This document shows positions 51,117 to 59,253 of a stretch of 64,000 nt of DNA, piece by piece. Every line of letters starts with the position of its first letter. Position 1 is the first letter of the stretch. A program made the position numbers and the translations under genes. The DNA is taken from assembly GCF_044324875.1 (NCBI RefSeq), contig NZ_CP172185.1; one strand, written 5' to 3'. Below the pieces are notes generated by a model. The model searched no databases. It was not told where the DNA came from and saw only the letters and a program-made list of their open reading frames with translations. Source of the DNA: Escherichia coli. Lineage in GTDB: Bacteria; Pseudomonadota; Gammaproteobacteria; Enterobacterales; Enterobacteriaceae.

Positions 51117-52682
51117 TCAGTGGTAGTAGCCCGGACCACGCAGGTTTTCATGCTCTGAAGCATATGCCGGATGTTGTTCGCCCTGGCGGGATAATGGAAG
51201 CTCCAGGTTCTCCCGATGGTGACGCAGCAGATTGTCGATAAAGCGTCTGTCAGGGGCGTTATAGTGCAGGGCAACGTAACAGGCCTTTTCCAGCCGTTCC
51301 GGGCCGTATTTTTTCTGAAGTGCCAGCAGCCCCAGAACTGCACGATAAGCCAGTTCCGGATGGGGTTTTGCCTTCAGCATGGATTCAACCACCCGGCCTG
51401 TGGACGGGCCCGTACGTTTTCCCTGCTCGATCAGGCGTTCCGGTGTCCATGTCCCGTGCTGCCGGTGGCGCTCTGGCATGTGAAGCGGATTGGTTGTGTG
51501 TTTATATTCATGTGTGCTGCGCGGATGTTGCGCCACACACTGCCCCTTGTGCCAGAGCTGTACCACCGACTGCCCCGCCTTCAGTGACAGACGCTGACCG
51601 ACCAGTTCGTGTGGAACGGAGTACCAGTGACGGGCATATTCAACGTGGTAGTCAGGGCCAACCTTCACAGCTTTGTATTCCGTGTATTCATAAGGTGCCA
51701 GAGGCAGCGGAGAGAGTGCTGGCGCATCCAGTATGCGGAAGCGTTCTGCACGGGTTTGATTGCCGTACCCCTTCATTGGCCGGTTATTCATGTCTGTCAG
51801 TAACTCCCTAAGGCGCGCATTCAGCGCCCTGAGCGTGTGGAAGGTTTCATTACGGATGCGGGCAAGAAGCCATCGTTCAACGATGAGGACGCCGTTTTCT
51901 GCTTTTGGTTTATCTTTAGGTTTGCGTGGTCGGGCCGGGATGATAACCGTGCCATAGTGCTCAGCCAGTGCCTGATAACTGTCGTTGATGACAGGCTCAT
52001 ATCGATCGGCCTTTTTCACTGCGCTTCTGAGGTTATCGGGGATGAGCAGCTTCGGTACGCCGCCCAGGAAGGTCAGGCAACGGCTGTGGGCATTTAACCA
52101 TGACATCATGTCCTGACCTTCGCACGCTTCAACGTAGGTATAGTTGGACGCCCCCATTACGGCCACGAAGATTGCCACGCGGCGTATCTCACCGGTGTCC
52201 GGATTAATAACAGGAACCGTAGGACCACAGAAGTCGATAAAAAGCTTTTCGCCGGCACGATGCTCCTGGCGCATGGAGAGACGTCGCGTTTTTTTCCACT
52301 CCCGGTAGCAACGGCAGAAGTGCGAGTATCCCATCGCTTTGTTACCCGCCTGTGCCTTGTATTCCATCCACAACAGTTGCCGCGTCACACCTGGTTTTCT
52401 CATTTCCGTATCGAAGTACAACATGTCAGGCATTACAAGCTCTGATGCAAAGGTGTCTTTGGGCGGAAAAATGAGTTTCTCCAGCGTGTCATGGGATATA
52501 TCAGCAGGTAATGGCCATGACAGAGAAGAGGCTTTGAAGCGGGCAAGAACCTCAAAAACGGTTGAGGCGCTGATGTGTAACGTCAGTCCGATACAACGGT
52601 TAGTCAGCTTCTTGTCGAACTTGAGCTGAAGGATCTTAAAACAGGTTTCCATAGTGCTCCTGGATTTTCTCTTTCTGGACAT
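51117..52682 (-). CDS. istA: IS21-family transposase IstA
   Basis: N-terminal HTH then DDE integrase core; likely ATG start at about 52682 (MSRKRK..., with GGAGA RBS) or 52652 (METCFK...); the track start at 52763 is a TTG. Confidence 0.8.
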   Translation of the reverse strand: MSRKRKSRSTMETCFKILQLKFDKKLTNRCIGLTLHISASTVFEVLARFKASSLSWPLPADISHDTLEKLIFPPKDTFASELVMPDMLYFDTEMRKPGVTRQLLWMEYKAQAGNKAMGYSHFCRCYREWKKTRRLSMRQEHRAGEKLFIDFCGPTVPVINPDTGEIRRVAIFVAVMGASNYTYVEACEGQDMMSWLNAHSRCLTFLGGVPKLLIPDNLRSAVKKADRYEPVINDSYQALAEHYGTVIIPARPRKPKDKPKAENGVLIVERWLLARIRNETFHTLRALNARLRELLTDMNNRPMKGYGNQTRAERFRILDAPALSPLPLAPYEYTEYKAVKVGPDYHVEYARHWYSVPHELVGQRLSLKAGQSVVQLWHKGQCVAQHPRSTHEYKHTTNPLHMPERHRQHGTWTPERLIEQGKRTGPSTGRVVESMLKAKPHPELAYRAVLGLLALQKKYGPERLEKACYVALHYNAPDRRFIDNLLRHHRENLELPLSRQGEQHPAYASEHENLRGPGYYH

Positions 52683-53233
52683 TGACGTCTCCACTGGTTT
52701 AAACACGGCAATGGAGACTGTGGTGAAAAGAGTTAATTCCCGGAGTGACTGGCAGGATGCCAATCAATGATCGGAAGCATGCCAAATCGTGATCGATTGT
52801 GATGCCAAACTGTGATCGGAGATGGATGCCAAATCATGATCGATTCGAATGCCAAACTGCGATCGATTCAGATGCCATTTTGCATCTTACTGGTGTGAAA
52901 TTTGACCTATTATATCTTCTGCCGCCCCCTCTGGCTGTATCAAATAAACCCGCAGCAGTCGCCGCGTATTACGGACGGACGCACCGTTCCCATGCTCACT
53001 CGTCACATTCCCCGTATCAGTTTCTCTTACCGTAAGAACGGCTCTGGCTGGCGATAAAACTAACCCGGTCGGGCATTCCCACAGTCTTTAGAGAAAATGT
53101 AATTTACCCCCTGAAACGCGGGCTGTTCCCCCGTCACCTGCGCGCGAAAAACTCACCGTTTTTTGTGCACGCACGAAATCGCCCTCCGGGCGCGCCAGTA
53201 CTGGGCCGGATGGGCAAAAAGTTACTCTAAAAA

Positions 53234-53263
53234 ATTGTGCAAATTTGTGCACTTTTGTGCAGA
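53234..53263. repeat. Three tandem 10-bp repeats with TTGTGCA core
   Basis: attgtgcaaa-tttgtgcact-tttgtgcaga, exact 10-bp periodicity; a fourth TTGTGCAC lies about 70 bp upstream. Confidence 0.5.
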
Positions 53264-53487
53264 TGGACAATAGCGTCAAAAAGAGTGCTTTTGAGAGATT
53301 TTTTATGGCAACTGCGCCGCGTGTATTACGTTTTTTACCATCCCCGCCGCGCATGTACATACTTCATTTTTCTGCCAGACAACAGGGCAACTCCCCGTGA
53401 CTGACAGCCCCAAAAAATCAATGATTGATGTTGCATTTTTGTTAAAGGTTAGACCAGTTGTTTTGGGGCTCTGCCTCATAATCCGGT

Positions 53488-53804
53488 GGGGGGTGCGCAA
53501 ACCGGTTACAACGGTTACAACACTCAAAAACACCACTTAACAGCATGATTTTAATGGATATTGTTTGTAACCGCTTTGCGGTTACACTGCGGTTACAACG
53601 GTTACAGGTTTCAAAAAGTACTTTATTATCAATCAATTAAAAACTTAACCTGTAACCGCCTGTAACCTAACAAAACGGTTACATGTAACCGCGTTGTAAC
53701 CGCTTTTGTAACTCATCGGACCAGTTATAATATATTGATATATAATACAAAAATAAGTAATTTTAAATTTGTAACCGTTGTAACCGCTTTGCGCACCCCC
53801 CCCC
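53488..53804. repeat. Iteron cluster (about 12 GGTTACA/TGTAACC heptamers) bounded by about 33-bp inverted repeats, with AT-rich core; candidate replication origin (ori/crr-like)
   Basis: Left arm ggggggtgcgcaaaccggttacaacggttacaac and right arm gttgtaaccgttgtaaccgctttgcgcaccccccccc are reverse complements; AT-rich segment about 53726-53770; G6 and C9 homopolymer tracts at the ends. Confidence 0.6.
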
Positions 53805-54052
53805 AAACTTTAGCGCGACCCTTTAAAATGTTAATTAAACTCACTTACTCTGTATCTCTCTAGTTAACTCTCTGTTATTGAAATGTATCTCTCCACTGTT
53901 TCACTCTTTCTGATAATCAGGGGAAGCAAAAAATTGATGGCGGCACTACTGCAATATGGCCACCATTGCATTGCTGTTACCGTTGGTTCTGGCCAACAAA
54001 AAAGGTCAGCGGGAAACTGACCTCTTTTGCTGTGAATGCGGCGTTCTGCGGG

Positions 54053-55057
54053 TTACTCTGCTGGCTCTTTTTCTTCGGTGATCACTATGTTGGCTACCGG
54101 GTTAAATCTCATGGCATCTGCCAGATAATCCGGTGCAAAATGTGCGTATGCCATAGTCTGCTGAATTGTCGCATGCCCAAGGATTTTTTGTAGCGCAAGA
54201 ATGTTGCCACCGTTCATCACAAAGTGACTGGCGAATGTATGCCGCAATACATGCGCAGCCTGCCCCCTCGGTAAATCGGGTTTTATTTTTTTTAATGCCC
54301 GGCAAAACTCTCTGTACTTCACATCAAACAGTCGCCCGGTTTCTTTTGTTTTTACGGCATCGCATATTTCCTGCGACACAGGCACCGTTCTTTTTCTACC
54401 GTTTTTGGTTTCCAGAAACGTTATTCTGTTATGAACTATTTGCTCTCCATGCAATCTGCTGGCCTCACTCCAGCGGGCTCCGGTACAAAGACACAAGAGC
54501 GCAACCCTTCGTTGATCTCCATTCAGCCCGTCAAGCAACAATGTGACCTCGTTTTTTGATAAAAAGGCCATTTCCCGCTGCTTTACATAAAGAACAGGAA
54601 TACCACGAACCGGATGCTCTGCATCCCACAAACCGATCTTTTTCAGGGCTGTAAACATCCCCGATAATCTGTTCATGTATCTGTTTGCTGAGGACGGCTT
54701 TAATCCTTCCGCAATTTTCTGCGATCGCCATGCAATGATTTTTAATTTGTTGAGTTCTGCCGCAAACATGTCAGCTCCAAGCTCATTAATAATTTTGCCA
54801 AGTTGCTGTTTATCCGTGTTTGCCTTTCGCCTGTGCTGACCGTGATAGACCCACCACAATTCCAGTAAATCGCTAAGCGTTCTCCGGTCGCGATAGCCCT
54901 GTATAAACTCGCGCTTTTCGGCGTTCGCTATGATGTACCGTTCAGTTGCTGTAGCTATCGATTTTTTGTCAAATATTCTTCTGATGCGCTTCCCTTTACG
55001 TCCGCATGGCCTGATATCGAGCAGCCACCGCCCATCATGCATCTTTCTGATCGGCAT
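54053..55057 (-). CDS. Tyrosine recombinase, P2/186-type integrase family
   Basis: From MPIRKMHDGRWLLDIRPCGRKGKRIRR; C-terminus GQAAHVLRHTFASHFVMNGGNILALQKILGHATIQQTMAYAHFAPDYLADAMRFNP closely resembles the recalled phage 186 integrase; start lies 2-3 nt after the primase stop. Confidence 0.8.
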   Translation of the reverse strand: MPIRKMHDGRWLLDIRPCGRKGKRIRRIFDKKSIATATERYIIANAEKREFIQGYRDRRTLSDLLELWWVYHGQHRRKANTDKQQLGKIINELGADMFAAELNKLKIIAWRSQKIAEGLKPSSANRYMNRLSGMFTALKKIGLWDAEHPVRGIPVLYVKQREMAFLSKNEVTLLLDGLNGDQRRVALLCLCTGARWSEASRLHGEQIVHNRITFLETKNGRKRTVPVSQEICDAVKTKETGRLFDVKYREFCRALKKIKPDLPRGQAAHVLRHTFASHFVMNGGNILALQKILGHATIQQTMAYAHFAPDYLADAMRFNPVANIVITEEKEPAE

Positions 55058-55059
55058 GT

Positions 55060-57753
55060 TTAACTCCCCTCCTTGTAACTGAATATCCGGCATTTCAGTA
55101 CTTCCGGCTCTCTGGCCTCGGCGACCCCTCTTCCGGCGTTTGCCTGTCTGGAGACCTCACTACGAATGGTTTTGCGGCCTGTCAAAGGTCGGGAACGTCC
55201 GGCTGCGAGCAACTCAATCATTTCGCGGTCAGTTCGGATCTCCACGCGGTGAATAGCGGCAGCCTGTGCCAGTTGCGGAATACTGATAGCAATCCCCTCG
55301 CGGCATCCCTTGCCGTAGTGGTTTACACCGTATTTTGTTATGCCGTCCAGATAGTCGAACGCCTCCCAGAACGCTATTACTTCCGGCAAGTCATCCGTTA
55401 CCGCTTTAACTTGTTCCGCTGCCATTCGTTCCAGTTCCTGGCATGTGGCATTAAGCCATTCATCCGGGATATCAATAACGCATTTCAGCGCCCTGACCAG
55501 CGCAATAAGTTGCGCGTGATTTTTGGCAATACGGGGATGGAGAATATTTTCGCAACCGCAAAGGCGGGTCGTTTCAGGCTCTGAGAGCGCCAGAAACATT
55601 TCCATAATTGCCCGTTCACGGCTGACTGCCCGATGAATAAACCCTGACACCTTCTCAACGGGGTAGAGTTCCAGTCGTCTCGCCGCCAGGCGGGTATCAG
55701 GTGAATGGCGTTTTTTATCGGTGTATATGCGTATCAGGCGCTCAATAATTGCAAGTGAGGCGTTTACCCTCGCATTCTGTGCAATCACGATAGCGCCCTT
55801 AAAATCCGGGTCATAGGTGTTGTTATTGTTGGTCTTAACGCCACGAACGCCGATACCGCCGCCGTTATAGAGGCTTTTCAGGTTATCGAAGTCAAACGCA
55901 CCTCTTTTTTGCGCATTGCCTCCCCGGTCTGCTTCAATCAGAACAACAGGTAATCCGGCGACCTGTCCAAAGGTGCGCTTCCAGCCCGCCTCTGATCCTT
56001 TGGTTGGATCAACGCCTTCATAGTTGTCACGACCGCACAACCGCCAGCAAAAATCAATCAATGTTGATTTACCCGTTCCGGGCTCCCCGGTGACTTCAAG
56101 GAAGGGGAAGGATTCTTCTTTATCCCGGATTTGTTCGCTGAACAGGGAGCCCAACCAGAAAGCCAGGGTAATAATTCCTTTTTCACCAAAAGCCAGCCAG
56201 AGATCTTCCACCCAGGACTCTGTAAACTCATCCGGTTTTTTGTAGTTAATCTGTAATGTGGGTTTTTCGCTTAATGGTTTTGCGTTTATGCCATCAATTT
56301 CAAAATAATCTTCGTCATTGATTTCATAAGTTTTTCCCTTGTAAACAGCAATATCATTAAACAGCCATGCCCCAATCGCCTTGTTGTATCCGATAAAATC
56401 CTGACCAATAACCTCTTTTATTGCGGGAAGGTCATTTTTTATTAATGCGTCAAGCTGCGTAGTCGTTCCGGTATAAATACCGCCTTTTGCCACATGCAAC
56501 AGGCGTTTTTTAAATTCAGATGCGGATGTCAATTGTCCTGATGTAAAGGTGTTTTTCACCGTAGCACCATCCGGGAACGTAACACGGAAGTAATACCATG
56601 CTTCATCCGTGTCATTATTTCGAATGTAATAAAGCGACGCTGGGTTACAGTTTGCGATTTCTTTTACTGCGCCAGATTCCTTAAGTGCAATTTTGCGCGC
56701 TTCATCCTCATCAACACTTCTCTCATTCTTGGCACGCTCTACAGCTTTCATATAGCGCTCAATGTCCAGTTTGAACCAGAAAACACGGTTATCAAAAGTA
56801 AAATGAAATTCCTTCCGCTCACGAAAGGAAAATATTATTAGCGCCTTATCTCTCGGAGATTTCGCCAGCAATAAATCACCGTAATGACGGTATCTTTTCA
56901 CATCATGGCCACGCAGCTTTCCGGCGATGTGTAAATCATTCCAGTCGCGTTTATTGTTGTTTTTACCTGGCAACGCCGCTGCCGTTCTCCAGCCGTCTTC
57001 GGCGCTGCGTTCTGCATGTTTTTTCGCGTAACGCTCACCCGCACGCCCGTTATCCAGCGCCCACACAATAACCGGACGGGGATTATCCCCGCACAGCTTC
57101 GCCAGCTCTTCCAGCGCCTTATCAGGGTAGTTCACGGCAGACATGACAGAAACGGCCGCAATGCCATTCTGGTTAAGGCTGATGGCATCAAAGATGCCCT
57201 CACAAATCCAGATTTCTTTGGCCTTGCTTAAATCTGCTCCCGGATAAGCCCACCACAACCCCTTGTAGCTGCCGGAAAAATTCGCCTTGCGCGCGAAGCG
57301 TCCCGGTCGGTCTATGATGCGCTCCCACCACACGCCGTCAGCCAGCGTAAAACGCACAGTAGCGGCCTGTTCGCCGTTTTCCTTGTCCTGGTATCGCTCC
57401 TGAGTAAATGCGCCCTTCAGTGGCCCCACAGCAATATTGCGCGCCTCCTGAAGATAAGCTGCCACCGCTGCATATGGCTCGTCTTTCGTGCTGATATAAC
57501 GATCTGACCATGATGAAAACACATCCGGGTAAAGTTCTTTGGTCAGCAGGTCTGTACCGCATTTATTTTCGCGCCCACAGTGTACGATGTACGGCCTTTC
57601 AAGGCTGGTAAACAACTCTTTCTTTCCACATTGCGGACAAACACCATACCGGAGGTAGTTATTTTCTTCTTTGAAGTTGTAATCACGGATAAGACGGTTA
57701 ATAATCTCTTTTCTGATGTCAGATTTCATATATAAAACTCCACCCCACTGCAC
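55060..57753 (-). CDS. Primase-helicase (P4 alpha-like replication protein)
   Basis: 897-aa ORF with N-terminal zinc finger (CPQCGKK...HCGRENKCG), TOPRIM-like WICEGIFDAISL and P-loop VTGEPGTGKST. Confidence 0.75.
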   Translation of the reverse strand: MQWGGVLYMKSDIRKEIINRLIRDYNFKEENNYLRYGVCPQCGKKELFTSLERPYIVHCGRENKCGTDLLTKELYPDVFSSWSDRYISTKDEPYAAVAAYLQEARNIAVGPLKGAFTQERYQDKENGEQAATVRFTLADGVWWERIIDRPGRFARKANFSGSYKGLWWAYPGADLSKAKEIWICEGIFDAISLNQNGIAAVSVMSAVNYPDKALEELAKLCGDNPRPVIVWALDNGRAGERYAKKHAERSAEDGWRTAAALPGKNNNKRDWNDLHIAGKLRGHDVKRYRHYGDLLLAKSPRDKALIIFSFRERKEFHFTFDNRVFWFKLDIERYMKAVERAKNERSVDEDEARKIALKESGAVKEIANCNPASLYYIRNNDTDEAWYYFRVTFPDGATVKNTFTSGQLTSASEFKKRLLHVAKGGIYTGTTTQLDALIKNDLPAIKEVIGQDFIGYNKAIGAWLFNDIAVYKGKTYEINDEDYFEIDGINAKPLSEKPTLQINYKKPDEFTESWVEDLWLAFGEKGIITLAFWLGSLFSEQIRDKEESFPFLEVTGEPGTGKSTLIDFCWRLCGRDNYEGVDPTKGSEAGWKRTFGQVAGLPVVLIEADRGGNAQKRGAFDFDNLKSLYNGGGIGVRGVKTNNNNTYDPDFKGAIVIAQNARVNASLAIIERLIRIYTDKKRHSPDTRLAARRLELYPVEKVSGFIHRAVSRERAIMEMFLALSEPETTRLCGCENILHPRIAKNHAQLIALVRALKCVIDIPDEWLNATCQELERMAAEQVKAVTDDLPEVIAFWEAFDYLDGITKYGVNHYGKGCREGIAISIPQLAQAAAIHRVEIRTDREMIELLAAGRSRPLTGRKTIRSEVSRQANAGRGVAEAREPEVLKCRIFSYKEGS

Positions 57754-58550: not shown

Positions 58551-58811
58551 TTACCCCTCCATGATTTTTACTGCGCATTTGTGGGTTAATCGCCCCTGTT
58601 TGTCATTGCGGGAATATGCCATACGACAGGCATCACGCCATACATCGTCATAAGTCGGATATTCCCGGGAATGAATCATCTGGCGAACGTCGCCGTTCTG
58701 GTAGTTAATCAGGGTGATAAGGAGCTTAAACATGGCACGCCTCCCGGACACGGATACGGGCAACAAAGACCAGACGAGATGCCGGAAGCAGGGCGCGCGC
58801 TTCGCGCTCAC
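58551..58811 (-). CDS. Hypothetical protein (60-86 aa)
   Basis: ORF in the operon between alpA and the primase; overlaps the next ORF, exact start unclear. Confidence 0.3.
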   Translation of the reverse strand: MSAKRAPCFRHLVWSLLPVSVSGRRAMFKLLITLINYQNGDVRQMIHSREYPTYDDVWRDACRMAYSRNDKQGRLTHKCAVKIMEG

Positions 58812-59253
58812 TGGCAGCGGTAACGGTATGAAGGCGGATATTTTTACCGTGGCACTGCATAAAGCGCCAGATAAAATCAGGGCGTGTTGATATAGCCATT
58901 TTGGCGGCTCCTTCTACTGATTTACGGAGTCTCGCCAGCACGCTGCTAAACATGGTGGCGGGACGTAACAGGGTTAGCAGACTGGCGTAGAAGAAACCAG
59001 CGAGCGCAAAGGCTCCCCCATTACGCCCCGCCATAATACGGGGTAGGGTGGAATTACGGGCACAAAAAAACCGCATTACGGAAATATAGCGGCTACCCGC
59101 TTCTACTATCAGGCTGCTAAACCCGGCACCCGCTTTATGAGGTGCGGGCAAACGATACGCCATGACAAAAAAGCGAGTCAAGCAATATTGCAAATTATTT
59201 TTGCGCGATTGCGCTGAGTGATTGATTTTTAAGAGTAAAAAAGTCATAATCAT
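58726..59253 (-). CDS. Hypothetical protein (up to 175 aa)
   Basis: Longest ORF in the alpA-proximal part of the operon; start uncertain; overlaps 58551..58811 in another frame (possible frameshift or overlapping genes). Confidence 0.3.
   Translation of the reverse strand: MIMTFLLLKINHSAQSRKNNLQYCLTRFFVMAYRLPAPHKAGAGFSSLIVEAGSRYISVMRFFCARNSTLPRIMAGRNGGAFALAGFFYASLLTLLRPATMFSSVLARLRKSVEGAAKMAISTRPDFIWRFMQCHGKNIRLHTVTAASEREARALLPASRLVFVARIRVREACHV

Follow-up and report, generated by a model that had tools for sequence, protein, structure and literature searches.

The window analysed here, a stretch of 64,000 nucleotides of Escherichia coli DNA, contains a mobile element of about 12.5 kb, and uninterrupted copies of this element, 97-99% identical, are present at differing chromosomal positions in 55 complete E. 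coli genomes. The element carries a tyrosine integrase gene, a second integrase-like gene, a large primase gene, an Ogr/Delta zinc-finger gene and the gene of a P2-family major capsid protein (Table 1). Based on this gene content, we regard the element as a P4-like satellite, which is unusual in encoding its own capsid protein. Classical P4-like satellites carry sid, psu and delta and have no capsid gene, and we found no paper describing a satellite type with its own capsid. The satellite capsid protein is about 35% identical to the gpN protein of P88-like phages and has an N-terminal extension, and the coiled-coil protein encoded directly upstream of the capsid gene is possibly a scaffold or a size determinant.

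The copy in the window is interrupted by an IS21-family element, which enlarges the satellite by 2.6 kb. The insertion lies 15 bp upstream of the start codon of the ogr-like gene and probably separates the ogr and capsid genes from the promoter that drives them. About five tandem repeats of about 22 bp (ATGCCAAA..TGATCG) occupy its right end at 52757-52884. To the right of the insertion, 13 of the 16 copies of GGTTACA/TGTAACC in the window are gathered within about 280 bp (53504-53785), together with AT-rich stretches, and an inverted repeat of 36 nt (53485-53520 and 53769-53804) flanks this block. The block is placed between the putative cos site described below and the second integrase-like gene, and might serve as the origin of the satellite, in the way of the P4 crr region, or as an attP-like site, as in the int-attP-cos order of phiCTX. 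The second integrase-like gene is 40-80% identical to the integrases of P88-like helpers and is kept in satellite copies that reside at different sites with different terminal integrases.

Table 1. Genes of the satellite, the inserted element and parts of the putative cos site (positions in the window)
Feature	Position	Strand	Basis or remark
P2-family major capsid protein	47618-49030	minus	PF05125
Coiled-coil protein, 236 residues	48889-49599	minus	no family match
Ogr/Delta zinc-finger gene	50048-50230		
IS21-family element	50246-52884		5-bp TCTTA target duplication
istB	50345-51343		within the IS21-family element
istA	51117-52763		within the IS21-family element
RefSeq hypothetical protein, 90 residues (e.g. 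WP_073267721.1)	53088-53360	minus	only ORF across the cos site
Conserved flank of cos, toward portal gene Q, ATTTACCCCCTGAAACGC	53102-53119		near-invariant between satellite and P88-like phages (alignment, conservation profile)
Putative 19-nt cohesive-end segment, GGTGACGGGGGAACAGCCC in minus-strand reading	53120-53138	minus	homology
GC palindrome TGCGCGCG, abutting the cohesive-end segment	53139-53146		invariant in alignment and conservation profile
Putative proximal recognition site TTTTTTGTGCAC, corresponding to the fourth repeat copy	53159-53170	plus	conservation of offset
Exact TTGTGCA	53163-53169, 53235-53241, 53245-53251, 53255-53261	plus (all)	exact search
Spacer, conserved in length and variable in sequence	53171-53228		low conservation, almost no indels
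Distal array: A6 tract, then three TTGTGCA decamers with 10-bp period	53229-53263	plus	outer edge of cos
Second integrase-like gene	54053-55093	minus	Int_N and Phage_integrase domains
Large primase	55060-57753		toprim domain, phrog_1139
Icd-like/repressor-like protein	58726-59253		
Tyrosine integrase	60639-61943		

Between the inserted element and the GGTTACA block lies a cluster of short direct repeats. The preliminary description had listed three decamers spaced by 10 bp with a fourth copy nearby, and all of them were found exactly as described: attgtgcaaa at 53234-43, tttgtgcact at 53244-53, tttgtgcaga at 53254-63, and the fourth copy, TTGTGCAC, at 53163-70. The insertion stops 278 bp short of the fourth copy, on its left side, and leaves the repeats untouched. 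When we counted the shared heptamer TTGTGCA over the whole 64-kb window, its overall number was unremarkable, with 12 copies observed and 15 expected. However, TTGTGCA is the sole exact 7-mer in the window that has three recurrences at any fixed period of 8-13 bp, and a 7-mer phased in this way three times was seen in none of 200 first-order Markov simulations. What is unusual in TTGTGCA is thus its clustering and phasing and not its overall abundance. In addition, A/T tracts with the same phasing precede the GTGCA cores of the three decamers (A6 at 53229-34, AAATTT at 53241-46, and TTTT at 53253-56).

In P2-family phages, the terminase cuts the DNA at cos, a site sufficient for packaging, to leave 5' cohesive ends of 19 nt, and the cos site is common to P2 and P4. 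The repeats of the satellite fall within a block of about 160 bp (53102-53263) that resembles such a site. We take the segment at 53120-53138 to be the cohesive-end segment, with cleavage positions predicted from homology. Its minus-strand reading, GGTGACGGGGGAACAGCCC, aligns column for column with the version in Klebsiella phages, GGCGAGGCGGGGGAGCAAG, of which the first 12 bases are those of P2. GGTGACGGGGGAACAGCCC itself has 13 of the 19 bases in common with the annotated P2 cos, GGCGAGGCGGGGAAAGCAC. It is also similar to the cos of phiRSA1, GGTGAGGCGGGG..., in the form in which that sequence is quoted in PMC5694545. The neighbouring GC palindrome has its counterpart in P2, 186 and P4, which all carry GCGCGC beside cos. 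Measured from the predicted nick, which lies 235 bp from the inserted element, the TGCA core of the proximal repeat is 31 bp away, and those of the three distal repeats are 103, 113 and 123 bp away. Midway along the spacer between the proximal and distal repeats, at 53195-53204, lies a dyad, CCAGTACTGG, and the spacer also holds a block, GGGCAAAAA, of moderate conservation. A similar dyad, GCCAG-NN-CTGGC, stands about as far from the nick in 186 and in Klebsiella phages and is moderately conserved in P2-type cos regions, and the dyad may represent a further subsite.

We then compared this region with phage genomes. The window segment 53096-53262 is 80-84% identical to DNA of P88-like (Xuanwuvirus) phages of the P2 family; the phages examined were P88, vB_EcoM-705R2, Citrobacter phage Shae_phiSM, Chuche, Klebsiella phage 3LV2017, Enterobacter phage phiT5282H and the Klebsiella record CP052639. 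Three features of the comparison agree with a P2-family cos. First, in all annotated phages examined, the homologous DNA occupies the non-coding gap directly beyond the portal gene Q, which is also the place of the annotated cos sites of P2 and 186, and the same portal-side position was seen in 86 viral contigs in addition to the named phages. Second, a G-rich cohesive-end segment related to GGCGAGGCGGGGAAAGCAC is present with GCGCGC adjoining it. Third, the same site is shared by the satellite and the helper phages. Across the satellite and the phages, the blocks ATTTACCCCCTGAAACGCGGGCTGTTCCCCCGTCACCTGCGCGC, TTTTTGTGCA and AAAAAATTGTGCAAATTTGTGCACTWTTGTGCA are near-invariant, while the 60 bp separating TTTTTGTGCA from AAAAAATTGTGCAAATTTGTGCACTWTTGTGCA have diverged and divergence is complete past the third repeat. 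Based on these observations, we suggest that, most likely, the phased TTGTGCA repeats belong to the cos signal of this P4-like satellite, a signal common to P2-family helpers. The matching packaging signal identifies the helper type of this satellite family as P88-like.

To extend the comparison, viral contigs were scanned for the exact 17-mer TTGTGCAAATTTGTGCA, which gave at least 120 loci. Among the matches listed, 86 have a P88-like portal or large-terminase gene beside the 17-mer (49-100% identity by tblastn), four are satellites of the type in the window, one or two are more distant satellites, and about six are chance loci without cos. The order portal, cos, repeats was the same in every inspected contig. 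A second scan was anchored on the cos core CTGTTCCCCCGTCACCTGCGC alone and was thereby unbiased with respect to the repeats; it yielded 122 unique viral sequences, in which a motif was counted if it stood at a given offset from the anchor or 1 bp to either side. The exact heptamer TTGTGCA was found at offset +40 in 117 of the 122 sequences, at +112 in 116, at +122 in 110 and at +132 in 82, and the GTGC[AG] core was found at each of these four offsets in 116-120 of them, the GTGC core being present at +132 in about 117. All four GTGC cores stand at their fixed offsets in about 95% of the 122 sequences. Of the 96 unique extracts with a proximal copy, 95 place it precisely 72 bp ahead of the first distal repeat, and the TTGTGCA architecture is common to at least five different cohesive-end sequences. 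Since the repeats recur in such numbers, at a fixed 72 bp and beside at least five cohesive-end sequences, their conservation is no lower than that of the cut site itself. When conservation was calculated per column for 73 representatives, it fell to zero directly past the third distal repeat. The repeats are under strong purifying conservation, against a diverged background. Since the compared sequences are related, part of this conservation reflects shared ancestry, but the divergence of the spacer and the flank argues against ancestry as the whole explanation. Two variants of the array were also observed. In the viral contig IMGVR_UViG_2778261593_000009, near 5589-5609, a P88-type cos has lost the spacer, so that the proximal TTGTGCAC directly adjoins the last distal repeat, apparently after recombination between the repeats had caused a deletion, and another locus has four distal repeats and not three.

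The geometry of the repeats was then compared with cos sites of other P2-family members; here, the first base of the annotated cos served as the origin, and distances run toward the right end of the genome. In P2, TGCAT is found at distal positions -123, -111 and -101 and at the proximal position -29, and in both 186 and P4 the same motif is found at -124, -111 and -101 and at -29. The TGCA core of TTGTGCA in the window, P88 and phiT5282H takes the positions -123, -113 and -103 and, on the proximal side, -31. Ralstonia phage phiRSA1 has TGCA(T) at -129, -110 and -100 and at -29, and Pseudomonas phage phiCTX has GCAG at -108 and -98 and at -36 and -27. HP1 contains three copies of CACGGAAA(A/T)T in its last 115 bp or so. 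P2, 186 and P4 have only the core in common otherwise, and since P2 and P4 are unrelated outside it, the shared positions of the motif are informative. In a set of 52 unique cos regions of the P2 type, for which the proximal site together with the core served as anchor, 44 have TGCAT 72 bp upstream of the proximal site and 41 have it 82 bp upstream, allowing 1 bp either way, and the background around these sites is unconserved.

The sites of P2, 186 and P4 thus resemble the one in the satellite in several respects: the cohesive-end segment is G-rich with GCGCGC beside it, helper and satellite have the site in common, a single proximal site stands near -30, and three distal sites with a TGCA core are phased between about -100 and -124; in P2 and 186, as in the P88-like phages, cos adjoins the portal gene. 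They differ from it in the cohesive-end sequence, in the motif, which is TGCAT in place of TTGTGCA, and in the distal period, which is 12-13 and 10 bp in contrast to the regular 10 and 10 bp of the satellite. The surroundings of the satellite sites also differ, since the P4 cos lies between psu and the int-side hotspot, whereas that in the window lies between the ogr-like and integrase-like genes. phiCTX (NC_003278) is likewise a member of the P2 family, and its record marks the repeats R4, R5 and R6 spanning cos in the attP-cos-ctx region; its paired GCAG motifs stand at the same distances as the satellite repeats, although the motif and the host are different and the record gives the repeats no function. 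The motif is therefore replaced in other lineages while the geometry is kept, and it appears that the family as a whole has short direct repeats of lineage-specific sequence, set at conserved distances to one side of cos.

Taking the position next to the cohesive ends, the fixed distances, the helical phasing and the sharing between helper and satellite together, we consider it probable that the four TTGTGCA copies are subsites of a cos packaging site of the P88-like helper type, carried by a P4-like satellite. The helper terminase, formed by the small subunit gpM and the ATPase gpP, would bind the phased direct repeats, and its binding would wrap or loop the 72-bp spacer and place the enzyme to nick the core. 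The three distal decamers, each with an A/T tract before it, would be presented on one face of the helix. By keeping the array, the satellite would have its own DNA packaged by the enzyme of the helper. The array would act either at initiation, like lambda cosB, or at termination, in the manner of cosQ. The P2 record calls gpM "probably the endonuclease subunit", gpM of P2 and gpM of the P88 type are 36% identical, and the gpM family has no solved structure related by sequence.

The closest analogy for such an arrangement is found in phage lambda. Lambda cosB consists of R3, I1, R2 and R1 and is bound by the small terminase subunit gpNu1 together with IHF. As proposed for the satellite array, it places several short terminase-recognition repeats on one side of the nick site, over 100-150 bp and with a bendable spacer. 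Unlike lambda cosB, however, the satellite array has no sequence similarity to the R sites, and its repeats are direct with a strict period of 10 bp. The satellite array may work like lambda cosB without being a member of that class, and the layout is only analogous. The minimal P2 cos is reportedly about 125 bp, which might exclude the distal trio, and in that case the trio would be an enhancer and not an essential part.

The distribution of the site among E. coli genomes was also examined. A match to this cos type is present in 1130 of 5426 complete E. coli genomes (about 21%), mostly at 80-90% identity, and these matches are presumably P88-like prophages. Among the best 25 satellite carriers, 16 genomes matched this region again at another place, which agrees, though weakly, with helpers of that cos type residing beside the satellite.

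Since the A/T tracts are phased at 10 bp, the array might instead be DNA with an intrinsic bend, or a host architectural protein of the IHF, Fis or HU type might bind to it; either would aid cos cleavage or genome circularisation without any contact with the terminase. The use of IHF between the R sites of lambda cos offers a precedent for such a role, and the phiCTX record annotates IHF sites near cos. However, the invariant part of the satellite repeats is the GTGCA core and not the A/T tracts, and no good IHF consensus was seen in the array or in 53171-53263 as a whole. Moreover, lineages that differ in the core (TGCAT, TTGTGCA or GCAG) keep the same distances, which fits recognition by a phage-specific protein better than binding of one common host protein. 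We thus consider bending or host-protein binding as the sole function of the array unlikely, while a host bending protein as a cofactor of the terminase is possible.

The edge of the conserved block also needs to be considered, since the third repeat is precisely where conservation stops and the variable cargo starts. Hotspots adjoining cos are described in PMC9122126, and the array could accordingly be a promoter, a regulatory site or a recombination boundary for a hotspot of variable cargo. In P2, the transcript of the old gene starts about 30-55 bp from the TGCAT trio, and the natural deletion described above, which fuses the proximal copy to a distal repeat, would also agree with recombination at the repeats. 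On the contrary, the cargo varies in content and in orientation, the unconserved flank leaves no room for a conserved -10 element, and the role of a hotspot needs no fixed distance to the nick. In the satellite of the window, moreover, the DNA beside the array is the iteron block and not cargo genes. A function of the array itself in the hotspot is thus quite improbable, and the hotspot boundary is better seen as a consequence of the edge of cos.

The preliminary description had read the repeats as an operator or activator-binding array, either a late-promoter control region responding to an Ogr/Delta-type activator or binding sites of a satellite regulator. Much of what that reading was built on is borne out: the repeats are conserved and helically phased, which would suit recognition by a protein, they reside in a P4-like element with an Ogr/Delta-type gene nearby, and the search in related elements that it had proposed showed TTGTGCA to be conserved in satellites and helper phages alike. 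The transcriptional interpretation fared differently. Ogr/Delta-dependent late promoters have a TGT-N12-ACA dyad about 55 bp upstream of the transcription start, a -10 element and a late gene downstream. The satellite array resembles the P2 late promoters solely in the nearby Ogr/Delta-family gene and in partial matches to the dyad, and differs from them in having no exact dyad, promoter or late gene downstream and in its fixed distance to cos. No exact TGT-N12-ACA dyad occurs in 52400-54300 and no sigma-70-like promoter was predicted in 53160-53265. Two matches at five of the six dyad positions do fall within the array, but several such matches are to be expected in every kb. The layout of the P2 activator site annotated at pO/pP is different. 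With the IS element excised, the nearest gene to the left (ogr) is about 350 bp away, and cos and a terminator-like hairpin (52951-52966) intervene. The array also recurs in the helpers after the portal gene, where the neighbouring genes vary in identity and orientation. Since the distance to cos is fixed, the neighbours differ and conservation ends at the third repeat, the array points to DNA packaging and not to transcription, and late-promoter or operator control is very unlikely.

Least likely of all, and hardly credible, is that the repeats are replication or partition iterons: P4 ori does contain three tandem 10-bp type 2 decamers at 9176-9205, and parM/parR-type genes occur within 1-2 kb in P88-like phages, but the array is common to gpA-type phages and the primase-type satellite, which replicate differently, so that a P4-type origin of type 2 decamers and alpha-binding type 1 iterons does not suit it, and it is unlike a ParR/parC centromere, whose repeats lie just upstream of parM, in being present in phages and satellites without par genes and in lying on the downstream side, while the upstream side of the par operon faces away from cos; the satellite also has its separate block of GGTTACA iterons.

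Coding and RNA readings of the region were rejected as well. The ORF that spans the cos site has no Pfam or PHROG match, and its frame contains one to three stops in 113 of the 120 homologous regions listed. Since the frame is broken in nearly all homologous cos regions, the annotated 90-residue protein is probably a spurious gene call. An Rfam scan of 52880-54100 gave just a chance snoRNA match with an E-value of 0.9.

Taken as a P88-type P2-family cos site in a satellite, the element is of an ordinary kind. PMC9122126, PMC9594776 and PMC5694545, which cite Ziermann and Calendar (1990) for the P2/P4 cos, describe only a conserved core of 55 bp. In the open literature, we found neither the phased distal repeats nor their fixed register described, although they may be noted in the 1990 primary paper, and the family-wide geometry of the repeats is thus a modestly new description. 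The analysis corrects a likely misreading of the region as a promoter or operator and the misannotation of a 90-residue RefSeq gene over cos. It also provides a signature, consisting of the core, the proximal site, the 72-bp spacer and the phased trio, by which cos can be located and typed in P2-family prophages and satellites.

We further propose, tentatively and as something that may well prove wrong, that the array is the P2-family-wide equivalent of cosB, so far undescribed. In this proposal, gpM and gpP would recognise an array held in a fixed helical register at about -29, -100, -110 and -123 in phages from E. coli to Ralstonia and Pseudomonas, and the variant of the motif (TGCAT, TTGTGCA or GCAG), and not the cohesive-end sequence, would set the match between helper and satellite. 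If this is true, satellites would sort into helper-specific packaging groups. If the repeats do set packaging specificity, they could guide the design of P2/P4-based cosmids for DNA delivery, and they would make it possible to predict which helpers mobilise which satellites, together with the defence and virulence cargo that these satellites carry.
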